NCBI GenBank assembly: GCA_035287205.1
Contig: DATEBV010000358.1
Span: 1 to 50,300 of the forward strand
DNA: 50,300 nt
Direction of reading: 5' to 3'
Source: Chthoniobacterales bacterium
Lineage (GTDB): Bacteria; Verrucomicrobiota; Verrucomicrobiia; Chthoniobacterales; UBA6821
Both the position numbers and the translations under genes were made by a program. Numbering within the stretch: position 1 is the first letter of the stretch; each line of letters opens with the position of its first letter. The notes below the pieces were generated by a model. The model did not search any database and was not told the origin of the DNA. It was given only the letters and a program-made list of their open reading frames with translations. Below are positions 1,942-49,960 of the stretch, one piece after another.

Positions 1942-1946
1942 AGTAA

Positions 1947-2053
1947 GGTAGGCGTTCAGATCCCCTCCTTCGAAGGACGGATCTGAACCAAATTATTGTG
2001 CTGCGAAGGTGTAGTGTAAATACATTGCTATAGTTCGTTAAGAAGCTACTGAA
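1947..2053 (-). repeat. Family A element, full length (A2)
   Basis: The reverse complement reads ...agtagcttcttaacgaactatagcaatgtatttacactacaccttcgcagcacaataatttggttcagatccgtccttcgaaggaggggatctgaacgcctacc and ends 5 nt before the RRM-gene ATG, sense to that gene. Confidence 0.88.
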
Positions 2054-2912: not shown

Positions 2913-3008
2913 AGTAGTGAACTATCCAATGCATTTACATTATTACTTCGCAGTCTGATTATTTAATTTAGATCCTTCCTACGAAGTAGGGAGGATCTGA
3001 ACGCCTAC
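2913..3008 (+). repeat. Family A element (A4)
   Basis: aatgcatttacattattacttcgcagtctgattatttaatttagatccttcctacgaagtagggaggatctgaacgcctac. The asnB stop codon (3005-3007, minus strand) is the CTA of the terminal CCTAC. Confidence 0.88.
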
Positions 3009-4864
3009 ATTGTATTCAAACTCTCCAACGAAATTGCAAGTACTAACAAGAGCCAGACTAACTCATCGAGGCGTTGATCATGCCTAGCAAGAAGCATTAA
3101 CGCTTCTAATCGCTTAGCGGATAATTGTCCTCCTGTAAGATTTTGAAGAGTTCGAGGTAGTTCGTGGCAGCGCAGAGCAAGTTCTCCTTGATGAAGCCAC
3201 TCATGGAGAGGAGGGTTAAATCCTCGTTTTGGTCCCATAACGACTTGAGATCCAATAATACGATCACATAAAAACTTTTTAGGAGGTTGAGTGAAACGTT
3301 CTGAACGTTTCATTCCTTGAATCGATTGAACAAAGAGATGGTCGAGCATTGGGCTGCGTAACTCTAATCCATGAGCCATACCGCAGAGATCTGACTTGCG
3401 CAGGATATATTCAGGAAGGTAGTTCAGTCGATCACAAGCAAGCATCCAGTCAAGAGGTGCAAGTTTTTCTAACGGCTTTTTCCAATAGCTGGTTTGTACC
3501 GCAAAATCAGGTTGCAAAAAAGCACGAGAGAGTGGGTCGAGTGCTGAAAAACGGAGCGTATAAGCATCCTCCCAGCCGAGTTGGTAGCCGAGGAGTATGC
3601 GGCGTAGGCGTCCAGCTCGAGAGGTTTTTAGGCAAAGGTTGGAAGAATTCCAACGTGAAGGCGTTTTCCCATGACGAGGAAGAAGACGTGCCGCACGCTC
3701 ATGAACACCATAGCGCTTGTATCCAGCAAAGAGCTCGTCACCACCATCTCCTGCGAGAGCTACGGTAATTTTTTTAACAGCAGCTTGGCAAAGATACCAT
3801 GTGGGAATAGCCGAAGGATCAGCAAATGGTTCATCAAGATCATGGATAATCGAGAGGGCATCGGAAGGACCCATGGTGATGGGTAACTCTGTATGATTGC
3901 ATTCCCACTGTTTAGCAATTTTGGCAGCGGCTACTGATTCATCATACCTTGGATTATTAGGGAATGTAGCGGTGAAAGTAGATAGTTTAGAAGGGACTTT
4001 ATTATTACCGCTAAGTGAGGCAACAAGAGCTTGAGAATCAATGCCACCGCTGAGAAAAACGCCAAGAGGACGATCAGAAGCGAGGCGAAGATCAACAGCT
4101 TCTCGGAAAAGAAGAGCTGGGTCTTTTTCTGGTGATGGAGTAGGAGCCCAATAGGATTGAGGTTGTTCAATAATCGGTTTCTCTTGGTCGAGGTGTACCA
4201 CCATACTATGCGCAGCAGGCAGTTTATAAAAACCATCAATAATAGAAAGGGGTGCCGGAATATAACGATGTGTTAAGAAGGCATCAATTGCGTTAGGATT
4301 GAATTGAGGTTTTGTATGGGGAGAGGTTAAAGCTAATAAGGCACGAGCTGTACTGGCAAAGGCAAAAGTTCCGTTGGTCGCTGTATAAAAAAGTGGTTTT
4401 TCACCAAGTCGATCGCGTCCTAGAAAGAGGCGCTGTTTTCGCAAGTCCACAATGGCAAAAGCAAACATGCCGCGGAGATGATCTAGAACGGCATCACCCC
4501 ATTCTTCATACCCATGGAGGATAAATTCAGTATCACAATGACTCGCAAAATGGTGACCACGCGACCGAAGTACTTGAGCTTCCTCTTCCCAACCATAAAT
4601 TTCACCATTGTAGACAATCCAGACAGAACCATCTTCATTCTTCATCGGCTGTGCTCCTGCTGATGAAAGATCACGAATACTGAGTCGTGTTTGAAGCAAT
4701 GCTGCTGTTCCTTGGGCAGAGTGATGCCAATGGTTGTTTTCTGAGAAAGAAAAAAAAGTTGTACCTTCTCCATCGGGACCACGGGTACTCAAACAGCTTC
4801 GTGCGTTTATAAGAGACTGCTCACTTAATGTGTTTGAAGAAAAGAGACCAGCTATGCCGCACAT
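3005..4864 (-). CDS. asnB: asparagine synthase (glutamine-hydrolysing) family amidotransferase
   Basis: 619-aa ORF; N-terminal nucleophile MCGIAG, synthetase-domain SGGIDS pyrophosphatase motif; stop codon lies inside repeat A4. Confidence 0.9.
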   Translation of the reverse strand: MCGIAGLFSSNTLSEQSLINARSCLSTRGPDGEGTTFFSFSENNHWHHSAQGTAALLQTRLSIRDLSSAGAQPMKNEDGSVWIVYNGEIYGWEEEAQVLRSRGHHFASHCDTEFILHGYEEWGDAVLDHLRGMFAFAIVDLRKQRLFLGRDRLGEKPLFYTATNGTFAFASTARALLALTSPHTKPQFNPNAIDAFLTHRYIPAPLSIIDGFYKLPAAHSMVVHLDQEKPIIEQPQSYWAPTPSPEKDPALLFREAVDLRLASDRPLGVFLSGGIDSQALVASLSGNNKVPSKLSTFTATFPNNPRYDESVAAAKIAKQWECNHTELPITMGPSDALSIIHDLDEPFADPSAIPTWYLCQAAVKKITVALAGDGGDELFAGYKRYGVHERAARLLPRHGKTPSRWNSSNLCLKTSRAGRLRRILLGYQLGWEDAYTLRFSALDPLSRAFLQPDFAVQTSYWKKPLEKLAPLDWMLACDRLNYLPEYILRKSDLCGMAHGLELRSPMLDHLFVQSIQGMKRSERFTQPPKKFLCDRIIGSQVVMGPKRGFNPPLHEWLHQGELALRCHELPRTLQNLTGGQLSAKRLEALMLLARHDQRLDELVWLLLVLAISLESLNTM

Positions 4865-9000: not shown

Positions 9001-10031
9001 TTTTCCTCTGAATCGATGATTGCTTCTTCAAATGTAGTCGTCGTTGTAGGATCAGAGATTGTTGAGTTAACTATTGTTGCATCAGAAATAATAGTTTCTC
9101 CATTACTTCGGTTCTCTTGAGACCTCTGAGTTCTTGCGGTTTCTAGTGCTTCATAAGCAATCTCTTCTTCTTCTCTTGCCTTTGCAAGATCGGCTTCGGC
9201 TGTAGCGCTCTGCGCAGTATCTCTTACTTCAATGGCCATTAATGTAGCCTTAGCTGTTGTTACTTTTGCTTTCGCAAGTTTTTCAACAAGCACTTTGATC
9301 TGATAATTTTCATACGCTTTATCAGCATATTTTTTCCCATGCAGGATGGCTGAAGTAGAGTTGGATCTTTTTTCAGCCAATTCTTTCTCTTTTTGAGCCG
9401 TCTCTAATATTTGTTGGCTCTTTTCTACATCTCTAATGGCTTGTTTCTCTACAGCGGCCCATTCTTTAGCCTCTTGTAGTGCCTCTTCAGAATTGCCACT
9501 AGCGGTTATCTTTCTATTTCGTGACATTTCTGCGACTCTGGCAAGACAGCTTGTATAGATATTATTGTAAATTTCATTTTTAAGAAATTGGGAGGTATTA
9601 TTTTCTTCAAAGAATTCGTCTTCGTCATTTGTTTCCCATGTGATGACGCTTGATGAACTGTTTCTCACAGGAAGAAGTGTTTCGGTGATAGTGCTGACTG
9701 CTGCGCTATCAAGAGAAGTGATTCTTTTTCCAAAAACTCCTAAGGATTCTTCCAATGCTTTTGCCTCTTCGAGTATTGAGGGATTCATCATTAGGTGGCA
9801 CCTCAAGTTTTGACTTGAGTTGTCACAGTTCGCAATTTGCAGTTCGTAGTTCGTAGTAATATTGCCAAGGAGGTTTTGCCTATGGTTTTCAGTCTGTGAA
9901 AAAAGACTGTCGGGAAAAAATATGAAAAGAGAGAGAATTAAAAATATTTGTAAGCGTTCACATCCCCTCCTTCGGAGGACGGATCTGAACCAAATGAATC
10001 GATTGCGAAGTTGTCGTGTGATGTAATGCAT
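6060..10031 (-). CDS. giant Ala/Glu/Lys/Gln-rich coiled-coil protein (function unknown)
   Basis: 1323-aa ORF in its longest form. From ATG 10031 (inside repeat A5) the N-terminus reads like a Sec signal: RRRGCER, then LQIFLILSLFIFF, then PDSLFSQ. Alternative start is ATG 9791, preceded by GAGGTG. Three in-frame tandem duplications are present. Confidence 0.7.
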   Translation of the reverse strand: MHYITRQLRNRFIWFRSVLRRRGCERLQIFLILSLFIFFPDSLFSQTENHRQNLLGNITTNYELQIANCDNSSQNLRCHLMMNPSILEEAKALEESLGVFGKRITSLDSAAVSTITETLLPVRNSSSSVITWETNDEDEFFEENNTSQFLKNEIYNNIYTSCLARVAEMSRNRKITASGNSEEALQEAKEWAAVEKQAIRDVEKSQQILETAQKEKELAEKRSNSTSAILHGKKYADKAYENYQIKVLVEKLAKAKVTTAKATLMAIEVRDTAQSATAEADLAKAREEEEIAYEALETARTQRSQENRSNGETIISDATIVNSTISDPTTTTTFEEAIIDSEENAKVQREALFAPVKNELKTITNMRGRAGRVVKATDSVDQERQGKDHRVTQDTKIFNKSDWAKASTLRDEVEARAARTAPLIKAAIQEVMNPGRAERVNSMVKMLEEVRTVKTAFALLRTEFQKIKEISDKTKTQSEDALTVANNAQKSTQQTTDITAKVQAKMLKLQGECTETTQTAKNTKAFVQQALATAQEELQKTSATAEEAKTHAKRAETVASKATFTATTAEDHSEEAKAQAEKATTIAEKAQEKAEQAAKDAQEATIYAAKALQTVGITQKAPQTVGITQSPVAMKISVAMKIIQQVKSVANTLLQALEHAKTEKFESMVQSLQSAQNSQTSLDNEINHEINHEIKEKINEEINYKMKATQAEAEENHEIAHIWNFAAQAPHNKKSTEAAVKCVEHLLKAQEAQSENKTLAQQERELAGQFWILAQQPAQKATEEIFNALLKSQEARAKGDQNLATCWRETAKQYQNYQEYTQMGYSNPSMDLSEKCAVALKKCALYETQASEARVAGNPELVSSWATTAKQFQTIAQLYDQWIKASEACKPSEEIQRLNAKIYAEAATAETLIKSAEYFTKAHETHIANNQELAACYKEVAESLKKEPSQGNRPPIIEALVKQAEYSEKAQKAQAAGRQELANLFKGLAANHHTLSLDSPQIHQQLEEARRNEQNARSSYDSQCNRSTNDQYAYQQRDEAYKRLQKEQQKVNELSQLPNLINTARQYIQSAPPQIERLEKEAGYLEKAQQAQVRGDSEQATAWKKLLEQFQHAQRIIQQAPQQINSYQQQMNQSGQDRSRAQQYITGLNCKLASANRMNNQTLPMLVTWLERTQEAQSVENKNSCKTVVQQLQKALDEDQKVLQSAENTLMDNCPVTQAASVANQLAHNLAQRTEQLWKTYKHQETLQSNWDLAEQSLTHWSEAVQLIKTVLENKSQTTQALKAGKQEEARSSAQKAKEAAKAALVEIEKVQEEMIKSLCEKK
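7951..7986 (-). repeat. 12-bp in-frame tandem repeat (about 3 units) inside the giant ORF
   Basis: atttcatggttt atttcatggttt atttcattgtct; encodes NHEI-NHEI. Confidence 0.85.
8106..8141 (-). repeat. 18-bp in-frame tandem duplication inside the giant ORF
   Basis: aattttcatagcaactga / aattttcatagcaactgg; encodes VAMKIS-VAMKII. Confidence 0.9.
8147..8206 (-). repeat. 30-bp in-frame tandem duplication inside the giant ORF
   Basis: gggtgatgccgacagtttggggcgcttttt / gggtgatgccgacagtttggagcgcttttg; encodes the peptide QTVGITQ twice, one copy per unit. Confidence 0.9.
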
Positions 10032-10051
10032 AGTTTGTTGAGGAGCTACTT
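9950..10051 (-). repeat. Family A element (A5), sense and upstream of / fused to the giant coiled-coil ORF
   Basis: The reverse complement reads agtagctcctcaacaaactatgcattacatcacacgacaacttcgcaatcgattcatttggttcagatccgtcctccgaaggaggggatgtgaacgcttac. Its ATG is the first codon of ORF 6060-10031. Confidence 0.88.
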
Positions 10052-10086
10052 TCGAAGGAGAGGAGGCAGAACGGTTATATTTTTGG

Positions 10087-10443: not shown

Positions 10444-10662
10444 ATGGCAAAAGAACAAGCAATTACTACTGATGGGGTCGTCTTGGAGGTTCTCCCTGGT
10501 ACGATGTTTCGTGTCAGATTATCCAATGGGCATCCTGTTTTAGGGCATATCTCAGGGAAAATGCGAAAGCATTTTATCCGTATTGTTCCTGGAGATAAAG
10601 TTACTGTAGAGATGTCTCCATACGATTTAACTAAGGCGCGTATTGTTTTCCGTACTGCGTAG
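10444..10662 (+). CDS. infA: translation initiation factor IF-1
   Basis: 72-aa ORF; near-canonical IF-1 S1-fold sequence ([20 protein letters not shown]...[16 protein letters not shown]). Confidence 0.95.
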
Positions 10663-10738
10663 ATGTTCAGATTTCCCCTCCTTTGGAGGAAGAATCTGAA
10701 CTAAATGATTAAAATACGAAGTTATAGTGTGAATGCAT
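10659..10738 (-). repeat. Family A element (A7), inverted, between infA and the acyl-CoA synthetase
   Basis: gtagatgttcagatttcccctcctttggaggaagaatctgaactaaatgattaaaatacgaagttatagtgtgaatgcat. It overlaps the infA stop TAG (10660-10662) and contains ATG 10705 of the next ORF. Confidence 0.88.
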
Positions 10739-12813
10739 TGCGTAATTTTTTATCGAGGAAAGGTAACAATAAAATAAAGACATCTTGTTTTACTTCAATT
10801 GCTCCACAGCAGAGACTGAGTGTTTACGAGAATTCGAATATAGCAGCCCTTTTTTTATGGGCTGGTGAATCTTGGGCTGCCAAGCCAGCCTTTGCAACGC
10901 GTCATGATGATGGAAATTTCCATGCGGTGAGTTACCATGAGTGGTGTGACCGTTCCCTCAATTTAGCAACAGCATTAATCGACCTTGGTGTTGCTGCTCG
11001 TGAGCATGTGGGGTTATTTAGCGATAATCGCTTGGAATGGATTTTAGCCGATGCGGCCGTTCAGTTTTGTGGTGCTGCTGATGTTCCTCGAGGGAGTGAT
11101 ATTACCGATGAGGAGATGGTTTATATTCTCAACCATGCTGATATTAAGGTTCTTTTTTTAGAAAACAGCTCTTTGCTCCACAAAATGGAATCCGTTAAAG
11201 AACGTCTTCCTAACCTTTGTCATGTGATTCTCATGGAGGATGCGACCTCTTCCTTTTCGGAGATTAGACTTCTTTCTTTACAAGAATTAGAGATGAGGGG
11301 TGAAACCTTACGTCTCGCTGGAGATCGGCGTGTGGAGGAACGTCTTGATCAAATCGCTGCCGAGGATCTCTGTACGATGATCTATACTTCAGGAACAACA
11401 GGAATTCCTAAAGGGGTGCAGCTGACCCATGCTGCGATAGTTTCACAGATACGCAATGTTCCTTTTGGAAAAGGGGTCAGTCCCCGGATTTTGGAAAAAA
11501 GATCAGGGACTGACCCCTTTTCTCAGAATCCGGGGACTGACCCCTTTTCTGACCCCTTTTGTGAATTTCGAGCACTTTCGATTTTGCCTGTTTGGCACAG
11601 CTATGAACGGATTTTTGAAATTATTACTATTAGCCAAGGGGGGTGTACTTACTATACCTCCTTGCGTCATCTGGCTTCAGATTTTCGTGCTGTACGTCCG
11701 ACGGTGATCGCTTCTTCGCCAAGGCTTTGGGAAGCGCTTTACGAACGGATGATGAAGGGGATTAAGGAGCAGCAAGGAATGGCAAAAAAAATGGTTTTGC
11801 TAGCTCTTTGGTCAGCTAATGCTGTGGGTGAAGCGAAGCGTTTTTTTACAGGGCAACAGTGTGATCTCACAGGAAGGTCTTGGATTAGTTCTTTAGCCTG
11901 TTCTCTAATATATAGTTTGCAATGGATGGTTGCCATTATTCCTTTTCTCTGGCTCGATCGACTAGTCCTTGCGAAGTTTCGCAGTATTGTGGGAGGAGAA
12001 CTCAAGGCCACTATTTCAGGAGGAGGGGCGCTTCCTCCTTACATTGATCGATTTTTTAATAATATCGGTATTGCGCTTCTCGAAGGGTATGGACTTACCG
12101 AGAGTGCTCCTGTATTAGCCGTTCGAACCTTGCAGCATCAGGTTATTGGGACGGTGGGCCCTCTTTTGCCAGAAACAGAGATCAAAATTATCAATTGTGT
12201 CACCGGTGAAACTCTTTATCCTGATTCGTCACAATGTGATTTAGGAAAGGGACTGCGCGGTGAAATTTGTGCTCGAGGCCCTCAACTCATGAAAGGATAT
12301 TATAAGGATCCTGAAGGAACGGAACGAGTTCTTCGCGATGGATGGCTTCATACAGGTGACATTGGCATGATGACTTTTAATAATTGTCTTAAAATTGTCG
12401 GTCGTTGTAAGGAGACCATTGTCCTTCGAAGTGGTGAGAATGTAGAACCATTGCCCATCGAATCACGTCTTCTGGAATCACCTCTTATTGCTCAATGCAT
12501 TGTTGTTGGCCAAGATCAAAAGTATCTTGGAGCATTGATTGTTCCTTCTCTTAATGGGCTAGGTAAGCATGGCTTAAACGCAACATCTCTGATGGAACTA
12601 ATGCAACAGAGGGAGGTACTGCACCGTTTTTTTAGGGAAGAGATACGACGTCTTGTAAGTGCTGAGCATGGTTTTAAGCCATTTGAACGTATTGTTGTCT
12701 GGCATTTACTCTCCAAACCGTTTGAAATTGGAGATGAACTTACTGCTACTTATAAATTAAAACGCCATGTGATTGCTGAGCGGTATAAGGAAGAGATTGA
12801 GGGAATATTCTGA
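10705..12813 (+). CDS. long-chain acyl-CoA synthetase (AMP-forming)
   Basis: 702-aa ORF; motifs YTSGTTGIPKG, GYGLTESAP, GWLHTGDIG. The first ATG lies inside repeat A7 (alternative TTG at 10738). Carries an in-frame palindromic insertion at 11466-11560. Confidence 0.85.
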   Translation: MIKIRSYSVNALRNFLSRKGNNKIKTSCFTSIAPQQRLSVYENSNIAALFLWAGESWAAKPAFATRHDDGNFHAVSYHEWCDRSLNLATALIDLGVAAREHVGLFSDNRLEWILADAAVQFCGAADVPRGSDITDEEMVYILNHADIKVLFLENSSLLHKMESVKERLPNLCHVILMEDATSSFSEIRLLSLQELEMRGETLRLAGDRRVEERLDQIAAEDLCTMIYTSGTTGIPKGVQLTHAAIVSQIRNVPFGKGVSPRILEKRSGTDPFSQNPGTDPFSDPFCEFRALSILPVWHSYERIFEIITISQGGCTYYTSLRHLASDFRAVRPTVIASSPRLWEALYERMMKGIKEQQGMAKKMVLLALWSANAVGEAKRFFTGQQCDLTGRSWISSLACSLIYSLQWMVAIIPFLWLDRLVLAKFRSIVGGELKATISGGGALPPYIDRFFNNIGIALLEGYGLTESAPVLAVRTLQHQVIGTVGPLLPETEIKIINCVTGETLYPDSSQCDLGKGLRGEICARGPQLMKGYYKDPEGTERVLRDGWLHTGDIGMMTFNNCLKIVGRCKETIVLRSGENVEPLPIESRLLESPLIAQCIVVGQDQKYLGALIVPSLNGLGKHGLNATSLMELMQQREVLHRFFREEIRRLVSAEHGFKPFERIVVWHLLSKPFEIGDELTATYKLKRHVIAERYKEEIEGIF
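11466..11560. mobile_element. Palindromic GGGACTGACCCCTTTT-type repeat cluster inserted in frame in the acyl-CoA synthetase gene
   Basis: Perfect 22-bp inverted repeat: aaaaggggtcagtccccggatt (11469-11490) / aatccggggactgacccctttt (11527-11548). Extra right-arm copies at 11506-11521 and 11549-11560. Encodes GKGVSPRILEKRSGTDPFSQNPGTDPFSDPF. Confidence 0.8.
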
Positions 12814-14855: not shown

Positions 14856-14953
14856 GCTCAGTTCACAGCTCTCCATCATTCACAAAATCATTGAGGGATT
14901 TAAAATTCTTATCCCTTAAACTCTGAAACATTTAACCCCCTAAATTACTACAT

Positions 14954-18487: not shown

Positions 18488-18582
18488 CTATTCGGCCTGT
18501 TGGCCGAATAGTTAGTTTAAGTTAAGAGTTTAAGTTTAAGTTAATTTTTGGTCACTTCGTGACAAGTTGAAAAATAAAGCGG
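18486..18582 (+). repeat. Family C modular element (C1) directly after the hemA stop
   Basis: Modules: hairpin ctATTCGGCCtgttGGCCGAATag; (A)AGTTTAAG-type short tandem units; TTTTTGGTCACTTCGTGACAAG; gaaaaataaagcgg. Confidence 0.88.
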
Positions 18583-18670
18583 TAACTACCGACATCTATG
18601 GTAACTTTTCAGTCCCCTTTTCTCCGGAGATGAGCTCTGAACTATAGGCTACAGGAGCAGATAGCTGTTT

Positions 18671-18774
18671 AGTAGCTTCTCAAAAAACTATGCAATCCAT
18701 TCATATTACTACTTCGCAGTCCAATCATTTAATTCAGATACCTCCTCCTTTGGAGGAAGTATCTGAACCCCTAA
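18671..18774 (+). repeat. Family A element (A8) forming the 5' end of hemC
   Basis: agtagcttctcaaaaaactATGcaatccattcatattactacttcgcagtccaatcatttaattcagatacctcctcctttggaggaagtatctgaacccctaa; translated in frame as MQSIHITTSQSNHLIQIPPPLEEVSEPL. Confidence 0.92.
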
Positions 18775-19808
18775 TTATTTTAGGAACTAGAGGAAGTGCG
18801 CTGGCGCGTGCGCAGACAACGCTTGTTAGCAAGTTGCTGAGAGCAGCCCACCCCGATCTTAGCATTGAAGAAAAGATTATTACTACAATAGGAGATATTA
18901 CTAGCGAACGGTCAAATTGTTTTATTCAGAGGCCGCCTCCGCAGGAGGTGGGCTCTGAACGCTTAACAGGAGATGCACGTCCTATGATGCCCCTCCATGA
19001 ACCAACTGCAGAAGGATCTGGTCTTTTTACACAACAACTAGAAGAGGCACTGTTCTCGCACGAAATCGATGCTGCGGTTCATAGTCTGAAAGATCTTCCG
19101 GTTAGGACTCCTATGCGGTTGATTTTAGCTGCTATTTTACCACGTGCGGCAACAAATGATCTGTTAATAACTCTTGATCAAGGGGGGCTTGAAGGATTGG
19201 CGTCTGGAGCTACCATAGGAAGTAGTAGTCCACGACGAGTAGAATTGCTCAGACATCGTCGTTGTGATCTTCGCTTTACAACACTTCGAGGTAATGTTCC
19301 GACAAGGTTGCGGAAATTAGCGATGAATCAACGAGATCACCCGCTAGATGCAATTGTTTTAGCACAGGCAGGACTCGAACGACTTGGATATGATTTGAAT
19401 ATCATCAAAGGAGAAGGTTGTTTCATGTTCGATGGTACAATGCTGCATGTGACAGAGTTGACTTGGATGCTTCCAGCACCAGGTCAAGGAGCCATTGCTA
19501 TTGAGACCCGTGATGTAAGTGATGAGAAATCTTCTCATGACGTTTCTGCCTATTTTTCAGCGCTACACGATGAAAAGACGGCAAAGTGTGTTCAAGCTGA
19601 ACGACTGCTCTTACAGTATCTCGGTGGAGGTTGTCATATGGCCCTAGGAGCCTTAGCGACTCTTGATGAGAGTTCACAGCAGATTGCGCTGAAGGGTGTC
19701 TATGTTCCTTATGCTGGGGCTACTCCTCGCGAGGGAGAAGCGAGAGGGGCTACTCCAGAAGAGGTAGCGTTGCTCGTGATGACACAGTTGACGGATAAAT
19801 TGGCGTGA
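18690..19808 (+). CDS. hemC: hydroxymethylbilane synthase (porphobilinogen deaminase) with repeat-derived N-terminus and an internal repeat insertion
   Basis: LGTRGSALA N-terminal motif, HSLKDLP, cofactor region GGGCHMALGA. The only in-frame ATG/TTG codons upstream of GTRGS (18690, 18750) lie inside repeat A8. Confidence 0.88.
   Translation: MQSIHITTSQSNHLIQIPPPLEEVSEPLIILGTRGSALARAQTTLVSKLLRAAHPDLSIEEKIITTIGDITSERSNCFIQRPPPQEVGSERLTGDARPMMPLHEPTAEGSGLFTQQLEEALFSHEIDAAVHSLKDLPVRTPMRLILAAILPRAATNDLLITLDQGGLEGLASGATIGSSSPRRVELLRHRRCDLRFTTLRGNVPTRLRKLAMNQRDHPLDAIVLAQAGLERLGYDLNIIKGEGCFMFDGTMLHVTELTWMLPAPGQGAIAIETRDVSDEKSSHDVSAYFSALHDEKTAKCVQAERLLLQYLGGGCHMALGALATLDESSQQIALKGVYVPYAGATPREGEARGATPEEVALLVMTQLTDKLA
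18897..18967 (+). mobile_element. Family A 3'-module (A9) inserted in frame inside hemC, flanked by a 7-bp direct repeat
   Basis: attactagcgaacggtcaaattgttttattcagaggccgcctccgcaggaggtgggctctgaacgcttaac, bracketed by AGGAGAT at 18890-18896 and 18968-18974. The repeat-to-repeat distance is 78 bp (26 codons). Confidence 0.88.
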
Positions 19809-19987
19809 GCTGCTTTGAGGTCAGAACTAATTCACGGGAATTCATAAACAGGCATGAAAAAGGATGAAAGAAGAAAAAATTAACAAGGATGGAAGGGATG
19901 GAAGGGATAGAAGAAAAAGAATACTGATTACTAAAAATCTAATTATTAATTGATTTCGGATATTCATTAATTTGATGATTTGTTTTC

Positions 19988-21652
19988 TTGATGTTAGCCT
20001 CTAAAACTATGCATTGCATTCACACTACGACTTCGCAGTCCGATCATTTATTTCAGATCTTTCCTCCGAAGGAGGAAAGATCTGAACGCCTACCTATTAC
20101 TCAACAACGTCAACCTGCAGGTATCTGTTTCTTAGTTGGAGCAGGACCTGGTGATCCTGGTCTTCTTACGGTGCGTGGTCAGGAGTTACTGCAGCAGGCA
20201 GAGGTTGTTCTCTATGATTATCTCTGCAATCGAGAACTACTGAGACAGGTGCCGTCGATAGCTGAAAAAATCTATGTTGGGAAAAGTGCTGGCAAACATG
20301 CATTGACTCAAGAGGAGATCAATGCCTTGCTTGTCAAATTCACGAAAGAAGGAAAACGTGTGGTGCGTTTAAAAGGAGGCGATCCTTTTCTTTTTGGGCG
20401 AGGAGGAGAAGAGGCCGAAGCGTTAGTCGATGCAGGGTTGCGGTTTGAAATTGTTCCCGGAGTAACTTCTGCTATTGCAGGATTAGCTTATGCAGGAATT
20501 CCTGTAACGCATCGTAAGAGTAATTCGCAGCTCACGATTTTTACCGGACATGAAGATCCTTCTAAGGATGGGTCATCACTCAATTATCCGTTACTAGCCT
20601 CAACTCCTGGGACGAAAGTTATGCTTATGGGGGTGGAGCAATTAGCTTCAATAACAACAGCGTTAGCAGTAGGAGGAATGGCATCGACAACACCAGTAGC
20701 CCTTGTTCGTTGGGCAACCACAGGACGCCATCAGACGATTGTTGGGACATTGGGGACCATTGCTGCTCTTGCTCAAGAAAACGATTTTAAAGCGCCTGCT
20801 ATTGCTGTTTTTGGAGAGGTTGTAACGCTTCGTGAGAAGCTCAATTGGTTTGAAACGCGACCTCTTTTTGGACGTCGTATTGTCGTCACTCGCACTCGCA
20901 AACAGGCAAGCGGTCTTGTAACAGCATTACGTGAGCTAGGAGCTGATGCTTATGAGTTGCCAACGATTCGTATCGAGCCTTTGAAAGAGAAAAAAGAAAT
21001 CGCTGTTTTTGAACAAGCCATAATGGAAGCTCACCATTATGATTGGATCATCTTTACAAGCCCCAATGGAGTAGTTGCTTTTTTTGACGCTTTTTATAAG
21101 TTGCGCCATGATGCTCGTGAATTAGGCAATGTTCGTCTCGCTGCTATTGGTACTGGAACTGCTCGTAAAATTGAAGAGTATCGCTTTGCCGTTGACTTAA
21201 TACCTCCTGAGTTTGTCGCTGAATCACTTCTTAAAGAGTTCCAGAAGATGAGTGTAGAAAATCTTCGTATTCTTTTACCGCGTGCTGCAGGAGCACGTGA
21301 ATTTTTAGCGACGGAACTCGAAGATCGTGGGGCTATTGTCGATGATATTTCTGCTTATTACACAGTAGCTGAAACAGAGGATGTTGCTGGAGGAATTCAA
21401 CGTTTCTGCGAAGAGGGGGCTGATATGATTACTTTTACCAGTGGTTCTACGGTGCAGCATTTTCAGGAATTGGCAAAACAACGAGCTCTTACGTTGCCTA
21501 AAGAGTTGGTTTTGGCTAGTATTGGTCCTGTGACTTCTTTTATGATGAAGGAATTAGGAATGACCGTAGGATTAGAAGCAGAACAACACGATATTCCAGG
21601 ACTTGTTGAGGCAATTTTAGGTTATTATACCCAACGCCCCTTTATTTCGTAG
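19988..21652 (+). CDS. cobA: fused uroporphyrinogen-III C-methyltransferase / uroporphyrinogen-III synthase
   Basis: 554-aa ORF. N-terminal half has VGAGPGDPGLLTVRG and LKGGDPFLFGRGGEE; C-terminal half is HemD-like. All in-frame start codons (19988, 19991, 20009) are at or inside repeat A10. Stop TAG lies in the loop of palindrome G2. Confidence 0.88.
   Translation: MMLASKTMHCIHTTTSQSDHLFQIFPPKEERSERLPITQQRQPAGICFLVGAGPGDPGLLTVRGQELLQQAEVVLYDYLCNRELLRQVPSIAEKIYVGKSAGKHALTQEEINALLVKFTKEGKRVVRLKGGDPFLFGRGGEEAEALVDAGLRFEIVPGVTSAIAGLAYAGIPVTHRKSNSQLTIFTGHEDPSKDGSSLNYPLLASTPGTKVMLMGVEQLASITTALAVGGMASTTPVALVRWATTGRHQTIVGTLGTIAALAQENDFKAPAIAVFGEVVTLREKLNWFETRPLFGRRIVVTRTRKQASGLVTALRELGADAYELPTIRIEPLKEKKEIAVFEQAIMEAHHYDWIIFTSPNGVVAFFDAFYKLRHDARELGNVRLAAIGTGTARKIEEYRFAVDLIPPEFVAESLLKEFQKMSVENLRILLPRAAGAREFLATELEDRGAIVDDISAYYTVAETEDVAGGIQRFCEEGADMITFTSGSTVQHFQELAKQRALTLPKELVLASIGPVTSFMMKELGMTVGLEAEQHDIPGLVEAILGYYTQRPFIS
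19993..20094 (+). repeat. Family A element (A10) forming the 5' end of cobA/hemD
   Basis: gttagcctctaaaactATGcattgcattcacactacgacttcgcagtccgatcatttatttcagatctttcctccgaaggaggaaagatctgaacgcctacc; translated as MHCIHTTTSQSDHLFQIFPPKEERSERLP. Confidence 0.92.
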
Positions 21653-21671
21653 AAATAAAGGGACGTTGGGT
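21629..21671. repeat. Family G palindrome (G2)
   Basis: acccaacgcccctttatttcgTAGaaataaagggacgttgggt; the cobA/hemD stop TAG (21650-21652) is at the loop centre. Confidence 0.88.
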
Positions 21672-21760: not shown

Positions 21761-21867
21761 TTCAGTAGCTTCTCAAACAAACTATACAATGTATTTACAC
21801 TGCATCTTCGCAGCTCAATCATTTGGTTCAAGTCCGTCCTCCGAAGGAGGGGAGCTGAACGCTTACC
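21761..21867 (+). repeat. Family A element (A11), followed by a variant hairpin at 21881-21917
   Basis: ttcagtagcttctcaaacaaactatacaatgtatttacactgcatcttcgcagctcaatcatttggttcaagtccgtcctccgaaggaggggagctgaacgcttacc; then ttcagagctcacccttcgaagaaaggtgaggttgaac. Confidence 0.88.
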
Positions 21868-21914
21868 CTACAGCCTATAGTTCAGAGCTCACCCTTCGAA
21901 GAAAGGTGAGGTTG

Positions 21915-23104: not shown

Positions 23105-23449
23105 ATGCAAATTCATCTAAGTCCTCGCCATATGGTGCTCACCGCAGCAATTCATTCTTACGTTTGTGAAAAAATTGCTCATCTTGAGTTAAAAACTCCT
23201 TCTCTAATTGCTGCGCATATTGTGATTTTGCATGATGAGACCAAGAAAAAACGCTATGTTGTCAAGGTGCATCTAGCCCTTCCTGGTCCTGATATCTTTG
23301 CCGAAGATGCTGAAGATAACCTTTATGCGGCCATTGATCTTGTGATTGATAAACTGGCTCAACAACTGCGCAAGCATAAAACAAAACTCAAAGAAACAAA
23401 AACTCATAAATTGCGTCTTGCTAAAGAGTCGATGAAGCGTGGGGTTTGA
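23105..23449 (+). CDS. hpf: ribosome hibernation promoting factor / RaiA family (short form)
   Basis: 114-aa ORF with S30AE/sigma-54 modulation protein-like sequence (NLYAAIDLVIDKLAQQLRKHK). Confidence 0.8.
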   Translation: MQIHLSPRHMVLTAAIHSYVCEKIAHLELKTPSLIAAHIVILHDETKKKRYVVKVHLALPGPDIFAEDAEDNLYAAIDLVIDKLAQQLRKHKTKLKETKTHKLRLAKESMKRGV

Positions 23450-23453
23450 TAAT

Positions 23454-23542
23454 ATGCAATGCATTCCTCTACTACTTCGCAGTACGATCATTTGATTCAG
23501 ATTCCTCCTCCTCCTTCGGCGGAGGAGAGGTCTGAACTAAGC
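23454..23542 (+). repeat. Family A element (A12) at the 5' end of scpA
   Basis: atgcaATGcattcctctactacttcgcagtacgatcatttgattcagattcctcctcctccttcggcggaggagaggtctgaactaagc; translated as MHSSTTSQYDHLIQIPPPPSAEERSEL. Confidence 0.88.
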
Positions 23543-25369: not shown

Positions 25370-25641
25370 TCAAAACGGTTCGTTTTGGAAGTGATAACAC
25401 ACCAGTAATTTTTCTTAAAAACTAAAAGGATTAAAAAAAAGTAATTCTTAGGCTTGTCGTGACGATCTATTTTCTATTAAATAGAAGACATCGAAGGCAG
25501 TCCTTGTATTTCATTATTATCGCTGTCAGATGCAGCTATCATCAGCTTCTTGCAATTTGTACTTGATTGATGATAATATATTCTGGCTAGTGGGATCGTC
25601 TTTTGCAGCAGTTTTTATTTTAAAAAAAATAAAAATTTCTG

Positions 25642-25671
25642 TTGACTTCAATCTCTTTAATGCATTATGCA
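25642..25671 (+). promoter_or_regulatory. Candidate sigma-70-type promoter for OMP paralog 1
   Basis: TTGACT (25642-25647), 18-nt spacer, TATGCA (25666-25671), preceded by an A/T-rich tract; about 48 nt upstream of ATG 25719. Confidence 0.3.
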
Positions 25672-25718
25672 AGGGGGTCTCAGATACATTCTCAAATCAT
25701 CTCAAACCAATTAAATCT

Positions 25719-26270: not shown

Positions 26271-26299
26271 GGTTTTTTAAGAAAGTTAATTTTAGTTTT

Positions 26300-26333
26300 A
26301 AACGGCGCTGGATTTATCCAGCGCCGTTTTTTT
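26300..26333 (+). terminator. Rho-independent terminator after OMP paralog 1
   Basis: aaacggcgctgg-attta-tccagcgccgttt followed by a T-run. Confidence 0.85.
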
Positions 26334-26494
26334 GCATCATACTTTTATTCTAATTGCTACAAACTGAAAATTATGCTTGCCATCTCCTTTTTGAAATTAG
26401 TACGATCACTAAGTTAAATTAACTAAATCTTTAGATAGCTAGATAGCTGTGCAGTTTTTTACAAGTTCTCTACATTTCTAAAACCCTAAAATCT

Positions 26495-27049: not shown

Positions 27050-27078
27050 GGTTTTTTAAGAAAGTTAATTTTAGTTGT

Positions 27079-27112
27079 AAACGGCGCTGGATTTATCCAG
27101 CGCCTTTTTTTT
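27079..27112 (+). terminator. Rho-independent terminator after OMP paralog 2
   Basis: aaacggcgctgg-attta-tccagcgcc followed by tttttttt. Confidence 0.85.
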
Positions 27113-27175
27113 GTAACTATTTAGATTGCATAGAATATTATTTTTGTTACTGTTTCGGTTCTTAAAAAATATATT

Positions 27176-27733: not shown

Positions 27734-27751
27734 GGCAAAAAATAATTGTAA

Positions 27752-35541: not shown

Positions 35542-35596
35542 ATTAGGGAAGTAGTAACCACCAATGTTGGTAGTTGAGAGATAGAAGATAGAAGAT

Positions 35597-35674
35597 TGCA
35601 TTTTAAATGATTACTTTGCAGTCCGATTATTTAATTCAGATCCGTCCTCCGAAGGAGGGGATCTGAATGCCTAC
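35597..35674 (+). repeat. Family A element (A13), antisense at the 3' end of the hydrolase gene
   Basis: tgcattttaaatgattactttgcagtccgattatttaattcagatccgtcctccgaaggaggggatctgaatgcctac; encodes the hydrolase C-terminus and stop on the minus strand. Confidence 0.88.
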
Positions 35675-36670
35675 TTCACGTTCAATAGCCGTAATGAGTG
35701 AGGAGGGATTGGCTAAAGGGGCAAGGAAACCAGGTGATTCTACTTCTGTAATAGAAAAACGATGAGCCAAGGGGCGCAGGCTCGTGATAGTTTCTGTTGT
35801 TTGACGGTTTGATTCTTGCGCTACAAGTAGTGCTATGGGAGCCGTGATCGTTGTTAGCCTTGCTGGAAGACTACGCCAGAATTTACGGGAGCTTTGAGCT
35901 AAAAAAGCATGCTCAGTTCCATATTGTTGTGCTGTGGATGTTAGGACAGTGAGGATTTCTTCAAAAGAGGGATCTTCGGAAGGAAAATGAGAGCGGATAA
36001 GCCAGTTTCTAATAGAAGCCTCTGTGCTTAACTGACGATGATAGACTAAGCGTGCAAGAGGGGGAAACCAAGAAAGAGAATAGGTGCCTGCTAAAGGGAA
36101 AGGACTTTTAGTTCCTTTTATGGCCAATAAAGGCATCCAGAGAAGAAGACGCACCACTTTATTGGGATAGGAGGCGCTTAAAAGAAGAGCAAGGTTAGCA
36201 CTCAGTCCCGAAGCAATAATAGTAACTGGCTTACCCTTGGTTGTGGCTTCTAGAAACTCTGCAAGAGAACGTGTTTGGGCATGAGCAGAGATGGCAGGAC
36301 GAGGGCGCTGAGACTCTCCGAAACCAATCAAATCAGGAACTAAGACCTGATAATTAGGTGCAAAGTGAGGATACACTTTAGACCATTCGAAAGAGGACGC
36401 CCCTGGGAAAACACCATGGAGAAAGAGGAGAGGCTCTCCTTCTCCTGAAGTATGATAAACGATTTCACCCGAAGAGGTATTTAGAACACGGGTGGCAAAG
36501 ACGGCGGGTGAAATAGCTTCTGAAAGAGGACTACGCAATGGATTTTTCCAACCTGATCGAAGTGCTAAAAGAAGAGCTCCTAGAAGTCCCACACCAAGAC
36601 CCGCCCCAACACTCATACCGATGGGGGAGAGCTTGTCCGGAGAATGATTTTTTTTAAAAGACTTGCTCAT
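35636..36670 (-). CDS. alpha/beta-fold hydrolase with N-terminal membrane anchor
   Basis: 344 aa; LLFLHGVFPG oxyanion-type HG motif, nucleophile-elbow-like IIASGLSAN. C-terminal GIQIPSFGGRI is encoded by repeat A13. Confidence 0.65.
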   Translation of the reverse strand: MSKSFKKNHSPDKLSPIGMSVGAGLGVGLLGALLLALRSGWKNPLRSPLSEAISPAVFATRVLNTSSGEIVYHTSGEGEPLLFLHGVFPGASSFEWSKVYPHFAPNYQVLVPDLIGFGESQRPRPAISAHAQTRSLAEFLEATTKGKPVTIIASGLSANLALLLSASYPNKVVRLLLWMPLLAIKGTKSPFPLAGTYSLSWFPPLARLVYHRQLSTEASIRNWLIRSHFPSEDPSFEEILTVLTSTAQQYGTEHAFLAQSSRKFWRSLPARLTTITAPIALLVAQESNRQTTETITSLRPLAHRFSITEVESPGFLAPLANPSSLITAIEREVGIQIPSFGGRI

Positions 36671-49057: not shown

Positions 49058-49795
49058 TTACAGGATATGGGTGAGAGCTTTAAGTTTGGATAGGATTTTT
49101 TCAGTGACTTCGTCAGCTGATCCTGAGGCATCGATAACAATAATACGGTCAGGTTCTTGCTCTGCCAGGGTGAGATAACCATGGCGAATAGCTTCAAAAA
49201 AAACTTCTGATTCTTGTTCGATACGATCAGGCATTGTTGATGAATTGGCATTACGTGATACCATTCGTTTACGCCCTATAGCAACTTCAAGATCAAGTAA
49301 GATCGTAATATTAGGAAGTGTTCCTCCTGTGGCAAATTGGTTCATCCAGGTTACTTCTTCTTGATTTAATGCACGTGCTACCCCTTGATAAACGGTGGTA
49401 GAATCAAGAAAACGATCGCAGAGCACAATAGCTCCACGAGAGAGAGCGGGACGAATGATTTCACGTACGAGTTGAGCCCGACTTGCTGCGAAGAGAAGTA
49501 ACTCTGTTTCAGGAGCCATAGCCGCGGATTCTGGAGCATATTGTAAAATAGAACGAATCTGTTCACCTACACCTGTTCCTCCCGGTTCTCGCAAGAGCAG
49601 AACCTCACGGGAGGGGGATGTGACATTGCCCTTTTGAAAAAACTCTGCCAGGCGAGCAATCTGCGTTGATTTGCCACACCCCTCCGAACCCTCAAAAGTA
49701 ATAAAAAATCCACCATTATTCAAATTTTCCTCGTGGGGAAGAGAACTCTGAATGAAATGATTCGACTGTTCATTAATGGTACGATTTAATTGCAT
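49058..49795 (-). CDS. tmk: thymidylate kinase
   Basis: P-loop FEGSEGCGKSTQ, LCDRF, LLDL motifs. The first 24 codons are a decayed family-A copy; alternative TTG 49723 is preceded by GAGGAA. Confidence 0.9.
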   Translation of the reverse strand: MQLNRTINEQSNHFIQSSLPHEENLNNGGFFITFEGSEGCGKSTQIARLAEFFQKGNVTSPSREVLLLREPGGTGVGEQIRSILQYAPESAAMAPETELLLFAASRAQLVREIIRPALSRGAIVLCDRFLDSTTVYQGVARALNQEEVTWMNQFATGGTLPNITILLDLEVAIGRKRMVSRNANSSTMPDRIEQESEVFFEAIRHGYLTLAEQEPDRIIVIDASGSADEVTEKILSKLKALTHIL

Positions 49796-49797
49796 GG
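49724..49797 (-). repeat. Decayed family A copy (A14) absorbed into the tmk 5' end
   Basis: The reverse complement reads ATGCAAttaaatcgtaccattaatgaaCAGTCgAATCATTTcATTCAGAgttctcttccccacGAGGAAaattTG. The peptide QSNHFIQSSLPHEE parallels QSNHLIQIPPPLEE of hemC. The hairpin is no longer intact. Confidence 0.5.
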
Positions 49798-49960
49798 TTT
49801 ATAATTTATCGTTGTTCTCGAAAAAGAGCATCAAAAAAATCTATTCTATTCTTCAAATAGAATTACTTACAGTCAGTAGACTCTAAGTAGGCCTATTGAC
49901 TGAATAGTTACGTCTATCTGAATACAATTCTTATGAATATATCAAAATCTTCTGAAAAGA

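Follow-up and report, generated by a model that had tools for sequence, protein, structure and literature searches.

The Rickettsia palindromic elements (RPEs; Ogata et al. 2000, 2002) are palindromic repeats that lie in frame in unrelated housekeeping genes, where each family encodes one conserved peptide falling in tolerated surface or loop regions (PMC10969869). The repeat analysed here, Family A, resembles them as a short, palindrome-bearing repeat with an open frame, which inserts in frame and contributes an element-encoded peptide. In contrast, Family A occurs in another phylum, and its genic copies lie mostly at the extreme 5′ end, replacing or preceding the start codon. It also has clear terminal inverted repeats (TIRs), 9-bp target duplications (TSDs) that are clear in two copies, two or three frames in use instead of one, and antisense copies that supply stop codons. 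Compared by behaviour and host, Family A appears to be RPE-like without being a member of the RPEs, and it has no match in Rfam.

Bacterial MITEs, such as Correia/CREE of Neisseria, ERIC, Nezha and the Anabaena MITEs, make in-frame fusions and alter the expression of adjacent genes (PMC10969869). Family A resembles them in being small and abundant, in its TIRs and in lacking a transposase, and in two copies it also has clear TSDs. That such repeats insert in frame is not new, but Family A is unusual in being concentrated at gene starts. In Correia elements the target duplication is TA, and their effects come from promoters, RNase III or IHF sites. We know of no bacterial MITE that is described as having about half of its copies on start codons, or as the only source of the start codon of essential genes.

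Two other classes are close in some respects. The RAYT-mobilised REP/REPIN sequences share with Family A a hairpin of two inverted units of ~22 nt beginning with GTAG, a very high copy number and a location at gene boundaries. REPINs make no target duplications, whereas Family A has 9-bp TSDs in two copies, together with a ~50-nt non-palindromic 5′ part containing ATGs; on account of the TSDs we rejected membership in that class. The MIRUs that Supply et al. are said to have described in 1997 are reportedly intergenic and oriented with transcription, the ends of their small ORF overlapping the flanking stop and start codons. ATGA overlaps of this kind are seen in Family A copies L055_4494 and L055_4911, and an arrangement suggestive of MIRU-like coupling is seen in four of the seven full-length copies with a retained ATG (two by ATGA, two by TGA-9 nt-ATG), the ORF being broken in the other three. 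Unlike Family A, MIRUs are tandem, minisatellite-like repeats that lack TIRs, hairpin and TSDs and do not fuse to the downstream protein.

In the window, by which we mean the whole 50,300-nucleotide stretch that was analysed, the sequence-only reading had recognised Family A as a repeat, and its abundance is indeed far beyond chance. The 21-nt core pattern has 6 matches against 0.01 expected, and an nhmmer profile detected 10 full-length copies (E 3e-29 to 4e-21) and 5 partial ones. These 15 copies in 50 kb are joined by 67 more in ~280 kb of further loci. An alignment was built from 42 copies. The element is ~70-130 nt long, encodes no transposase and is present in many dispersed copies. Its TIRs are GTAGGC(T)GTTCAG in module X and CTGAACGCCTAC at the 3′ end; in the hutU copy (L056) the pair reads GTAACCGTTCAG...CTGAACGGTTA. 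The left repeat also has an internal copy, which pairs with the right repeat into a hairpin of 15-16 bp. At the start of the sense strand are two ATGs whose A-rich surroundings are predicted to be unstructured, and at the 3′ junction two of its three frames are open; the antisense strand is rich in stop codons. The architecture of hairpin, CTACAG repeats, module X and core that is found ahead of hemC recurs in ~10 other copies. Subfamilies can be told apart, among them a 1-nt deletion type at a giant ORF and an older type in the hutU, gatB and tmk copies.

Traces of mobility are preserved at a few sites. A perfect target duplication (9/9, AATACCCTT) flanks the hutU copy of L056, where the ancestral ATG is retained upstream and in frame. 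The match is 8/9 at a copy inside hemC and 7/9 (AT-rich) at the giant ORF, and ~19 other tested copies match at 4-6 of 9 positions, as expected by chance. In the available loci, a scan of TIR pairs 0.6-3 kb apart gave no parent IS with Family A TIRs; the pairs are neighbouring MITEs around ordinary genes, and the scan is uninformative because the MITEs are so dense. No Rfam family reached the gathering threshold, and the only matches, at E up to 1, were at chance level.

Comparison with relatives, which had been suggested as a check, revealed two syntenic loci (L061, L062) in which hemC, cobA/hemD, the NAGPA-domain gene and scpA are present without any Family A copy. In database scans, Family A was matched in this genome's contigs alone. 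A 20-base element pattern searched against a contig collection gave single chance matches (Paenibacillus and similar genomes), and a protein-database search with the 41-aa cobA N-terminus gave no candidate, the alignment of the 29-aa element peptide being too short. As a MITE, Family A is specific to one Verrucomicrobial lineage and very dense there. The host is an uncultured soil or groundwater bacterium, a Chthoniobacterales-like Verrucomicrobium.

A census of 82 copies combines the window with 30 loci of the IMG dataset Ga0155638; the two share repeat families only, from which an origin in the same genome is assumed rather than proven. A long sense ORF (≥100 codons) exits the 3′ end of the element in 44 of the 82 copies. 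At gene 5′ ends the ratio of sense to antisense copies is 41:1 (p = 2e-11), at gene 3′ ends it is 0:8, and copies touching no gene (15:10) have no orientation bias. The sole antisense copy at a 5′ end is that of the AMP-binding gene (Table 1). An orientation linked to replication was rejected: GC skew is uniform across the window, and the strand of the element tracks that of the gene. About 11 copies stop 0-10 nt short of a retained canonical start, an arrangement of which the copy at the RRM-protein gene is typical. Among nine copies with a retained ATG ≤10 nt downstream, the in-frame element ATG is open to it in none, which would be expected if the old start is free to decay once an in-frame element ATG is available. 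Besides the N-terminal fusions, in-frame genic copies were found inside hemC, in lpxD (L060_9187), in hutU (L056_3043) and twice in L049.

Table 1. Family A copies in the window and the gene features next to them
Feature	Position	Strand	Remarks
Copy near RRM-protein gene	1943..2037	-	1 nt before ATG 1941 (nhmmer limit; ~6 nt after GCCTAC)
Antisense copy	2919..3013	+	Contains asnB stop codon 3005-3007
Full-length copy (1-nt-deletion subfamily), 5′ end of 1323-aa ORF	9947..10078	-	
Antisense copy over AMP-binding gene start	10653..10749	-	ATG 10705, GTG 10729 and TTG 10738 all within element
Decayed hairpin-only copy	18605..18659	+	TTCAGTCCCC...GAGCTCTGAAC, then TATAGGCTACAGG spacer
Full-length MITE, hemC 5′ end	18660..18773	+	nhmmer E 4e-24
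hemC ORF	18690..19808	+	372 aa read from element ATG; same start annotated in GenBank
ATT ATT, first codons past element	18774..18779	+	I-I of IILGTRGS; near-cognate start candidates
In-frame insertion within hemC, 78 nt	18897..18974	+	nhmmer E 3e-9; second copy, missed by the sequence-only reading
MITE, cobA/hemD 5′ end	19987..20093	+	nhmmer E 3e-29
ATT, 2 nt past element	20096..20098	+	GenBank (NCBI) cobA start, 518 aa
Copy upstream of NAGPA-domain gene	21778..21870	+	ORF extends to ATG 21789, DLNAY frame
Copy filling hpf-scpA spacer	23448..23537	+	ATG 23459 in scpA frame, unneeded
Antisense copy	35585..35679	+	Contains alpha/beta-hydrolase gene stop 35636-35638
Decayed copy, tmk 5′ end	49719..49800	-	ATG 49795, TTG 49723; nhmmer E 1e-5

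It had been claimed that Family A supplies the only usable start codons of hemC and cobA/hemD, and probably of scpA, tmk and the giant ORF. A start scan upheld this for the first two genes. In hemC, read from the upstream stop ending at 18647, only ATG 18690 and TTG 18750 precede the LGTRGS motif, both in the element, and the next canonical in-frame start (TTG 18834) is already past it. The element carries a left TIR-like GATAGCTGTTTAG (18660-18672, module X) and a right TIR CTGAACCCCTA (18763-18773), and TTG 18750 sits in the loop of its hairpin (18733-18768; -26 kcal/mol, z -5.0). The decayed copy ahead of it has a weak nhmmer match (18598-18644), and an in-frame TAG at 18645-18647 closes the hemC frame upstream. 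In-frame ATT codons past the element do exist, at 18774 and 18777 and not at 18772 and 18775 as first quoted. They are ordinary conserved Ile codons, because homologues have L/I-I-L-G there, and their predicted accessibility (0.32-0.34) is similar to that of intragenic positions.

The insertion within hemC consists of a 69-nt 5′-truncated Family A copy and one copy of the 9-bp target duplication (ATAGGAGAT 18888-18896 / ACAGGAGAT 18966-18974), which together add the residues ITSERSNCFIQRPPPQEVGSERLTGD. It is missing from all 17 homologues and falls between GD46 and G57 of the PBGD structure 4mlq, in a flexible loop. The catalytic and invariant residues of HemC are conserved across 18 sequences, and N-terminal extensions of 20-35 aa are tolerated in related HemC proteins. 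Such extensions (e.g. MSNPLPPRVSNHRLP) were considered as decayed Family A and rejected, since nhmmer has no match at those loci.

In cobA/hemD, TTG 19988, ATG 19991 and ATG 20009 are the only starts that precede GAGPGDP, all within Family A, and the next in-frame start, GTG 20171, lies past the motif. The first two belong to a decayed module X (CTTGATGTTAGCCTCT); ATG 20009 follows, and the element ends with a right TIR CTGAACGCCTAC (20082-20093) and folds into a hairpin at 20052-20087 (-29 kcal/mol, z -5.2). Read from the element, the ORF is intact over 547 codons. The GenBank gene (4407-5963 in L001, window 20096-21652) begins at ATT 20096, where the relatives place the ancestral CobA Met; position 1 of the NCBIfam profile is 5 residues past this codon.

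Shine-Dalgarno usage is absent in the 36 genes checked. The predicted accessibility is 0.69 at ATG 18690 and 0.55 at ATG 20009, compared with 0.53±0.12 at control starts and 0.38±0.10 at intragenic positions, and on this prediction the element ATG is as accessible as the genuine starts of this genome. The GGAGG of the hairpin was rejected as a Shine-Dalgarno site, as it lies 17-23 nt from the candidate starts, is base-paired and would act in a genome with no such usage.

On balance, we lean towards the following account. Family A, a non-autonomous MITE, would have burst in one Verrucomicrobial lineage, its copies building up at translation start sites, where essentially only sense copies persist. 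A sense copy leaves the reading frame open and would provide a start codon; antisense copies are kept at gene 3′ ends, where they end translation quickly. Either target preference or selection may lie behind the enrichment at start sites. In hemC and cobA/hemD, the 3′ end of the element lies on the ancestral N-terminus, and initiation at the element ATG (18690; 20009) would yield functional enzymes with an element-encoded N-terminal extension of 28-29 residues. With no canonical start downstream and the element at the ancestral N-terminus, we infer that the element ATG is the codon most likely used by ribosomes in these genes.

The same pattern extends to other genes. At least six more among the Ga0155638 loci have no downstream canonical start, namely gatB, mpl, two GT2 genes, hutH and an AI-2E transporter. 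For gatB, mpl, cobA and tmk, profile models put the ancestral N-terminus right at the edge of the element, and in the two GT2 genes, HutH, the AI-2E transporter and HemC it likewise falls at the junction. In the giant ORF, the start scan agrees that ATG 10031 is the only canonical start ahead of the hydrophobic segment; it yields MHYITRQLRNRFIWFRSVLRRRGCERL, followed by that segment, and this arrangement recurs in the unrelated gene L047_2586. The claim did not hold for scpA, in which canonical in-frame starts follow the element (GTG 23546, TTG 23570) and the alignment to full-length ScpA models starts at residue 40-41, corresponding to TTG 23570. Nor did it hold for tmk. There TTG 49723, at the 3′ edge of the decayed copy and derived from the 3′-arm CTGAAC, fits the homology-predicted N-terminus better than the element ATG, as position 1 of the dTMP-kinase model coincides with it or with the next residue. 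The NAGPA-domain gene probably starts near TTG 22080, because its orthologues are 265 aa long with the signal peptide at the beginning.

A broader version of this account would make Family A a portable initiation module that works without Shine-Dalgarno, with start codons targeted or copies retained there genome-wide and initiation of a sizeable share of the proteome, including essential genes, taken over. The unstructured, A-rich ATG would recruit ribosomes, leading either to an N-terminal fusion or to a stop at the 3′-arm TGA and re-initiation at an adjacent ATG. We put this forward as a tentative possibility. Essential genes named under it are hemC, cobA/hemD, gatB and mpl.

A serious but less likely alternative is that initiation occurs at near-cognate ATT, ATA or ATC codons in the ancestral position just past the element (hemC 18774 or 18777; cobA 20096), the element being a 5′ leader whose ATG-led frame contributes nothing to the mature protein. 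In cobA, ATT 20096 aligns with the initiator Met of the syntenic CobA/HemD orthologues (518 aa against 515 and 518 aa), has a predicted accessibility of 0.64 and was chosen by PGAP. An ATC in hutH is likewise aligned with the orthologous Met, and an ATH codon lies 0-3 codons past the junction in the nine start-less genes examined (hemC, cobA, gatB, mpl, two GT2, hutH, the giant ORF and L047_2586). However, the ATT codons of hemC encode the conserved Ile of the first β-strand at a predicted structured site, and a start there, 1-2 residues before LGTRGS, would be shorter than in any of the 17 homologues. Nor is there an ATH codon opposite the ancestral Met in gatB and mpl, which have ACC or AAA at that position. 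Since Ile is frequent in N-terminal strands and signal peptides, the ATH coincidence is weaker than it appears. AUU, AUA and AUC starts are very inefficient in the bacteria studied.

Another possibility, which we think unlikely, is a functional and selected form of the favoured account, a leader cassette in which the element ATG would be used in every sense copy, with either fusion or a stop at the 3′-arm TGA and re-initiation, depending on the frame. The consensus short-hairpin variant does contain an ORF of 24-25 codons ending at that TGA, in L042 (mutL) and L029 the TGA is followed after 9 nt by the ATG, and leader stop and gene start overlap as ATGA in the two L055 copies. Against this, the leader ORF is broken in three of the seven full-length copies with a retained ATG, and intact leader ORFs are no commoner at gene starts than elsewhere.

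Quite unlikely, in our judgement, is a mobile promoter and leader, with TTCACA-N17-GATCAT (20019-20047 in the cobA/hemD copy) as a sigma-70-like outward promoter, the hairpin as a stabiliser of the transcript 5′ end and the upstream ATGs untranscribed from it; if active, it would start transcripts downstream of the element ATG. The copies 0-10 nt before a retained start would suit it, and the 41:1 bias at gene 5′ ends, although the TIR ends are near-identical, calls for some orientation-dependent function or tolerance. Yet a promoter scan found 1 promoter-like site against 2.9 expected in shuffled sequence, in the older subfamily (hutU, gatB and tmk copies) the hexamers are spaced ~4 nt differently, and copies that do not abut genes lack an orientation bias. 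This model also leaves hemC, cobA, gatB, mpl and others without a canonical start, and would thus need near-cognate initiation as well.

It is very improbable that hemC and cobA/hemD are insertion-inactivated pseudogenes or that their starts are assembly artefacts: hemC was hit by two insertions (5′ end and internal) and has no canonical ancestral start left, but the two reading frames run unbroken through 372 and 547 codons, the catalytic and invariant residues of HemC are kept, model matches are strong, the internal hemC insert is a multiple of three in a flexible loop, the essential gatB and mpl share the pattern, and three assemblies agree. The sequence is identical in the ENA and Logan assemblies apart from one substitution at 16309, and this agreement of three independent assemblies excludes the frameshift errors that had been raised as a caveat.

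Returning to the account based on the element ATG, we considered what the shared peptide signifies. The peptides quoted in the sequence-only reading translate as written; its idea of a conserved N-terminal tag fared less well. Copies are read in several frames, the junction being crossed 24 times in the SERL frame and 15 times in the DLNAY frame, and in the giant protein and in L047_2586 the 5′ part of the element is read in a third frame. The N-terminal peptide is shared because the copies are ~80% identical in DNA. Intact ATG-led frames are found in 8 of 11 copies touching no gene and in 24 of 29 5′ copies; as they are equally common at gene starts and elsewhere, the idea of a tag was dropped. 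By the same comparison of intact-ORF frequency, the element ORF shows no sign of selection. The peptide is shared as a by-product of the identity between repeats, and a selected tag is unsupported. To call the repeat co-opted would also imply selection, whereas an insertion that was tolerated, with the old start then lost, fits equally well.

Gene callers already conflict on these loci, starting hemC at the element ATG and cobA at ATT (GenBank) or ATG 19991 (ENA), which makes annotation systematically uncertain for this and similar MAGs. Near-cognate ATT starts, if they were used instead, would themselves be unusual at such a frequency. Should ribosomes use the element ATG, many housekeeping proteins of one lineage have had their N-termini and start sites rewritten by a selfish repeat. 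Family A would then offer a natural experiment on start choice without Shine-Dalgarno, on tolerance of N-terminal extensions and on coding sequence made by MITEs.

Family A, a short interspersed repeat (MITE) with ATGs near its 5' end and a hairpin at its 3' end, had been read as the only source of usable starts for hemC and cobA/hemD, and a codon-by-codon scan confirmed this for canonical codons. The hemC frame opens after TAG 18645-18647, and only ATG 18690 and TTG 18750 precede the LGTRGS motif; the next start, TTG 18834, would remove it. In cobA/hemD, only TTG 19988, ATG 19991 and ATG 20009 precede GAGPGDP, and the next canonical start is GTG 20171. In the giant ORF (1323 aa), ATG 10031 is the only canonical start ahead of the hydrophobic segment. 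The peptides quoted in the sequence-only reading translate correctly. Its proposal for scpA was wrong, as GTG 23546 and TTG 23570 follow the element, and four full-length ScpA models have their alignment begin at residue 40-44 of the translated frame, corresponding to TTG 23570. The start of tmk is probably not the element ATG (49795), and homologues fit TTG 49723 at the edge of a decayed copy. The ORF of a NAGPA-domain gene also extends to an element ATG; its orthologues, 265 aa long with an N-terminal signal peptide, fit TTG 22080. The observation holds up and reaches beyond what was first seen.

The possibility of frameshift errors in the sequence was not borne out. GenBank contig MIDR01000041.1 (assembly GCA_001830205.1) matches the window. 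In the 7-kb stretch around hemC, the NCBI record is identical and the ENA assembly differs at one base (16309), and the Logan read-set assembly agrees over hemC. The window has a GC content of about 42%, and HemC homologues place the host among Chthoniobacterales-like Verrucomicrobia. A metagenome scan gave 30 loci of the IMG dataset Ga0155638, which have only repeat families in common with the window. Because of these families, we infer that the loci come from elsewhere in the same genome or from a sister genome. They contribute 67 further copies to the 10 full-length and 5 partial ones in the window (profile built from ten copies).

Aligning 42 full-length copies, and extending the alignment upstream, revealed a module at the left, (GTA)GGCTGTTCAGTAGCTTCTCAACA, then a core that starts with AACTATGCAATGCA, and a 15-16 bp hairpin, TTCAGATCC.TCCTCC-GAAG-GGAGG..GGATCTGAA, followed by CGCCTAC. 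The hairpin folds with energies of -26 to -30 kcal/mol (z about -5). The termini are inverted repeats (GTAGGC(T)GTTCAG versus CTGAACGCCTAC; TIR sequence GTAGGCGTTCAG), and hairpin-only copies are approximately both repeats back to back. A 9-bp target duplication, AATACCCTT, accompanies the hutU copy of locus L056, where the ancestral MSKNTL start is kept upstream in frame, and another accompanies the copy inside hemC (ATAGGAGAT / ACAGGAGAT, 8/9 match); none is detectable in most other copies. The syntenic loci of two relatives, whose HemC is 63-65% identical, preserve the gene order and lack Family A. No Rfam family matches the element. Family A is a lineage-specific MITE. Where the hemC-cobA spacer of the window holds repeats, both relatives carry small toxin-antitoxin-like genes (HTH_3, HipA-coupling, HicA/HicB).

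Placement was scored by open frames of at least 100 codons crossing either element boundary on either strand. A long sense ORF leaves the 3' end of 44 of the 82 copies, two of which are also entered by a long ORF at the 5' end; homology comparison finds more internal insertions (e.g. hemC, lpxD) than these two. One copy lies antisense at a gene 5' end, eight are antisense copies at the 3' ends of genes and contain the stop codon of the gene, none lies in sense at a 3' end only, and 30 touch no long ORF. The sense to antisense ratio at gene 5' ends is 41:1 (p = 2e-11), and the bias is absent among copies touching no gene (15:10). Two sense frames (...SERL and ...DLNAY) stay open across the 3' junction, each reached from one of the two 5' ATGs, and the third is stopped by a TGA in ATCTGAAC; six-frame translation revealed antisense frames rich in stops. 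The asymmetry at 5' ends follows in part from these open sense and stop-filled antisense frames. The orientation bias is explained by selection against intragenic and antisense insertions. The sharp positional peak, with half of the copies ending within a few codons of a start, is not explained in this way and needs an AT-rich start-region target preference or an orientation-dependent benefit. The single antisense copy at a 5' end holds every canonical start candidate of an AMP-binding (acyl-CoA ligase-like) gene (ATG 10705, GTG 10729, TTG 10738), the only such case among the 82 copies.

We placed the ancestral N-terminus against the element 3' end by full-length profile models (see table), and two classes of gene emerged. 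Class 1 (about 11 copies) keeps a canonical start directly past the element. Nine of these copies keep an ATG; in none of them does the gene's frame reach back to an element ATG, and in six it is the TGA frame. Class 2 numbers eight genes or more (hemC, cobA/hemD, gatB, mpl, two GT2 genes, hutH and an AI-2E transporter), and the giant ORF and L047_2586, an unrelated gene of similar arrangement, may also belong to it. In class 2, the stretch from the element to the conserved core lacks any canonical start, and every gene has an open frame back to an element ATG. One would expect such a split if the old start were no longer needed once an in-frame element ATG is available, and so decayed, but were kept where the frame is closed.

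No Shine-Dalgarno motif at proper spacing was seen for any of the 36 genes in the window, and a Shine-Dalgarno-like motif 5-15 nt upstream is absent at all but one of their starts. The starts typically follow ...CT or ...TT. Initiation presumably depends on leaders that are unstructured and A/U-rich, and accessibility was taken as the predicted unpaired probability from -18 to +11. In hemC, the element ATG clearly resembles a start more than any other site does, while for cobA the evidence is balanced between the element ATG and ATT 20096. The in-frame hemC ATT codons named in the sequence-only reading are present, each lying two bases away from its stated position, at 18774 and 18777.

Class 2 genes could instead initiate on near-cognate codons just past the element. 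ATT, ATA or ATC lies 0-3 codons from the junction in the nine class 2 genes examined, and cobA ATT 20096, the GenBank start, aligns with the Met of 515- and 518-aa orthologues. However, an ATT start would leave hemC fewer residues ahead of LGTRGS than any homologue has, and gatB and mpl have ACC or AAA where the ancestral Met codon would align, which favours decay over ATH initiation. The junction ATH codons could be decayed ATGs, since every third-position change gives ATH, or could arise because N-terminal strands and signal peptides are rich in Ile.

The element ORF might be read as a leader ahead of the gene's own start, an arrangement that recalls MIRU-type coupling. In four class 1 copies, the element ORF stop overlaps the gene ATG as ATGA or precedes it by 9 nt, whereas the leader ORF is broken in three others. 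The layout in L055, L042 and L029 is typical of translational coupling. Another proposal is a promoter inside Family A (TTCACA-N17-GATCAT, 20019-20047), from which transcripts would begin at the hairpin. It would explain why sense copies end just ahead of retained ATGs, but the match is weak, with promoter-like sites numbering 1 versus 2.9 expected in shuffles, the hexamer spacing differs in the older subfamily, and class 2 genes would still have no canonical start. The idea of a conserved N-terminal tag found no support as selection on the peptide: the DNA is about 80% identical among copies, two or three frames are used, and no single peptide is favoured, since junction frames split 24 : 15 : 5. 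ORFs of 22 or more codons that begin with an ATG occur in 24/29 sense copies at 5' ends versus 8/11 copies touching no gene. An Arg-rich stretch followed by a hydrophobic segment occurs in the giant ORF and in L047_2586, both with copies of a 1-nt-deletion subfamily; in the giant ORF the Arg-rich part may act as a signal-peptide n-region. Pseudogenes or assembly artefact are excluded for practical purposes.

Features of the window and of Ga0155638 or syntenic loci, with model alignments and predicted accessibility
Feature	Coordinates	Observation
hemC element ATG	18690	accessibility 0.69
hemC TTG	18750	hairpin loop; accessibility 0.21
hemC ATT codons	18774 / 18777	accessibility 0.32-0.34
cobA element ATG	20009	accessibility 0.55
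cobA ATT	20096	accessibility 0.64
Giant ORF ATG	10031 (-)	accessibility 0.75
23 element-free control starts		accessibility 0.53 ± 0.12
Random intragenic positions		accessibility 0.38 ± 0.10
GatB		model position 1 = residue after element
Mpl		model start = second residue after element
CobA		model start = fifth residue after element
Tmk	49723	dTMP-kinase model position 1 = residue directly after TTG, element edge
GT2, two genes		domain position 1 = 3-5 residues after element
HutH		model start 7 residues after element
MutL, RRM protein, others		normal ATG 0-10 nt past element
Leader TGA/gene ATG overlap (ATGA)	L055 4494-4588 (-), 4911-5003 (+)	
Leader TGA 9 nt before gene ATG	L042 1058-1150 (-); L029 390-480 (-)	L042: mutL
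AMP-binding gene	10705-12813 (+)	antisense copy 10653-10749 (-)
hemC internal insert	18888-18974	including 9-bp duplication
Toxin-antitoxin-like genes in spacer	L061 8885-10919; L062 3758-4198	
GGTAAC...GTTACC palindromes	18483-18523, 37864-37904, 46321-46361, 48874-48914, 10085-10125, 14820-14860, 2104-2144	
Short-period repeat leaders	4861-4960, 29183-29282	also upstream of 33899-35500 and 44942-46351
CAACGTCACTTTATTTCGTAGAAATAAAGTGACGTTG hairpins	2233-2288, 21613-21668, 31849-31904	gene 3' ends
AATAGCCACAAAAGAACACAAA repeats	5662-5717, 39545-39721, 43564-43619, 44551-44606, 46536-46650	purine-rich, intergenic
Three tandem paralogues	25530-27789	about 184-246 aa, DNA 63-95% identical
RRM protein	1114-1941 (-)	275 aa; RRM domain residues 110-179

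Other repeats also border genes in the window. A second palindromic family, GGTAAC-TATTCGGCC-NNNN-GGCCGAATA-GTTACC, abuts coding boundaries exactly: the hemA TAA stop (18485-18487) sits within GGTAAC, and in the opposite orientation GTTACC is directly followed by the ATG of an AIR-synthase-like gene (37863) and of a DNA pol III delta' gene (48873). Short-period repeat leaders lie directly upstream of start codons, GATAGAAGATAGGAGAT-type ahead of asnB and the gene at 29366, and AACCTGTAACCTG-type ahead of a symporter and the gene at 44942. Heptamer (G/A)CTACAG repeats adjoin many Family A copies. The CAACGTCACTTTATTTCGTAGAAATAAAGTGACGTTG hairpins, one of them right at the cobA/hemD end, are terminator-like in look without a T-run. 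A shared terminator, made of a GC-rich hairpin and a T-run, follows each of the three tandem paralogues. The RRM protein carries its single domain after a 109-residue Ser/Arg/Pro-rich low-complexity N-terminus; bacterial RRM proteins are rarely this long.

Judging from the reading frames, Family A is also translated within genes. hemC carries a 78-nt in-frame insert, overlooked in the sequence-only reading, that none of 17 homologues has. It maps between GD46 and G57 of the B. megaterium PBGD structure 4mlq, which we take to be the flexible active-site (lid) loop. An insert is also present in lpxD at about model position 17, and one membrane protein contains two more. In-frame insertion into genes has likewise been described for Rickettsia palindromic elements (RPE), and in-frame MITE fusions are not unusual according to a recent review (PMC10969869). 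Family A is an RPE-like MITE in kind, and the new aspect is its concentration on start codons in a genome without detectable Shine-Dalgarno sites.
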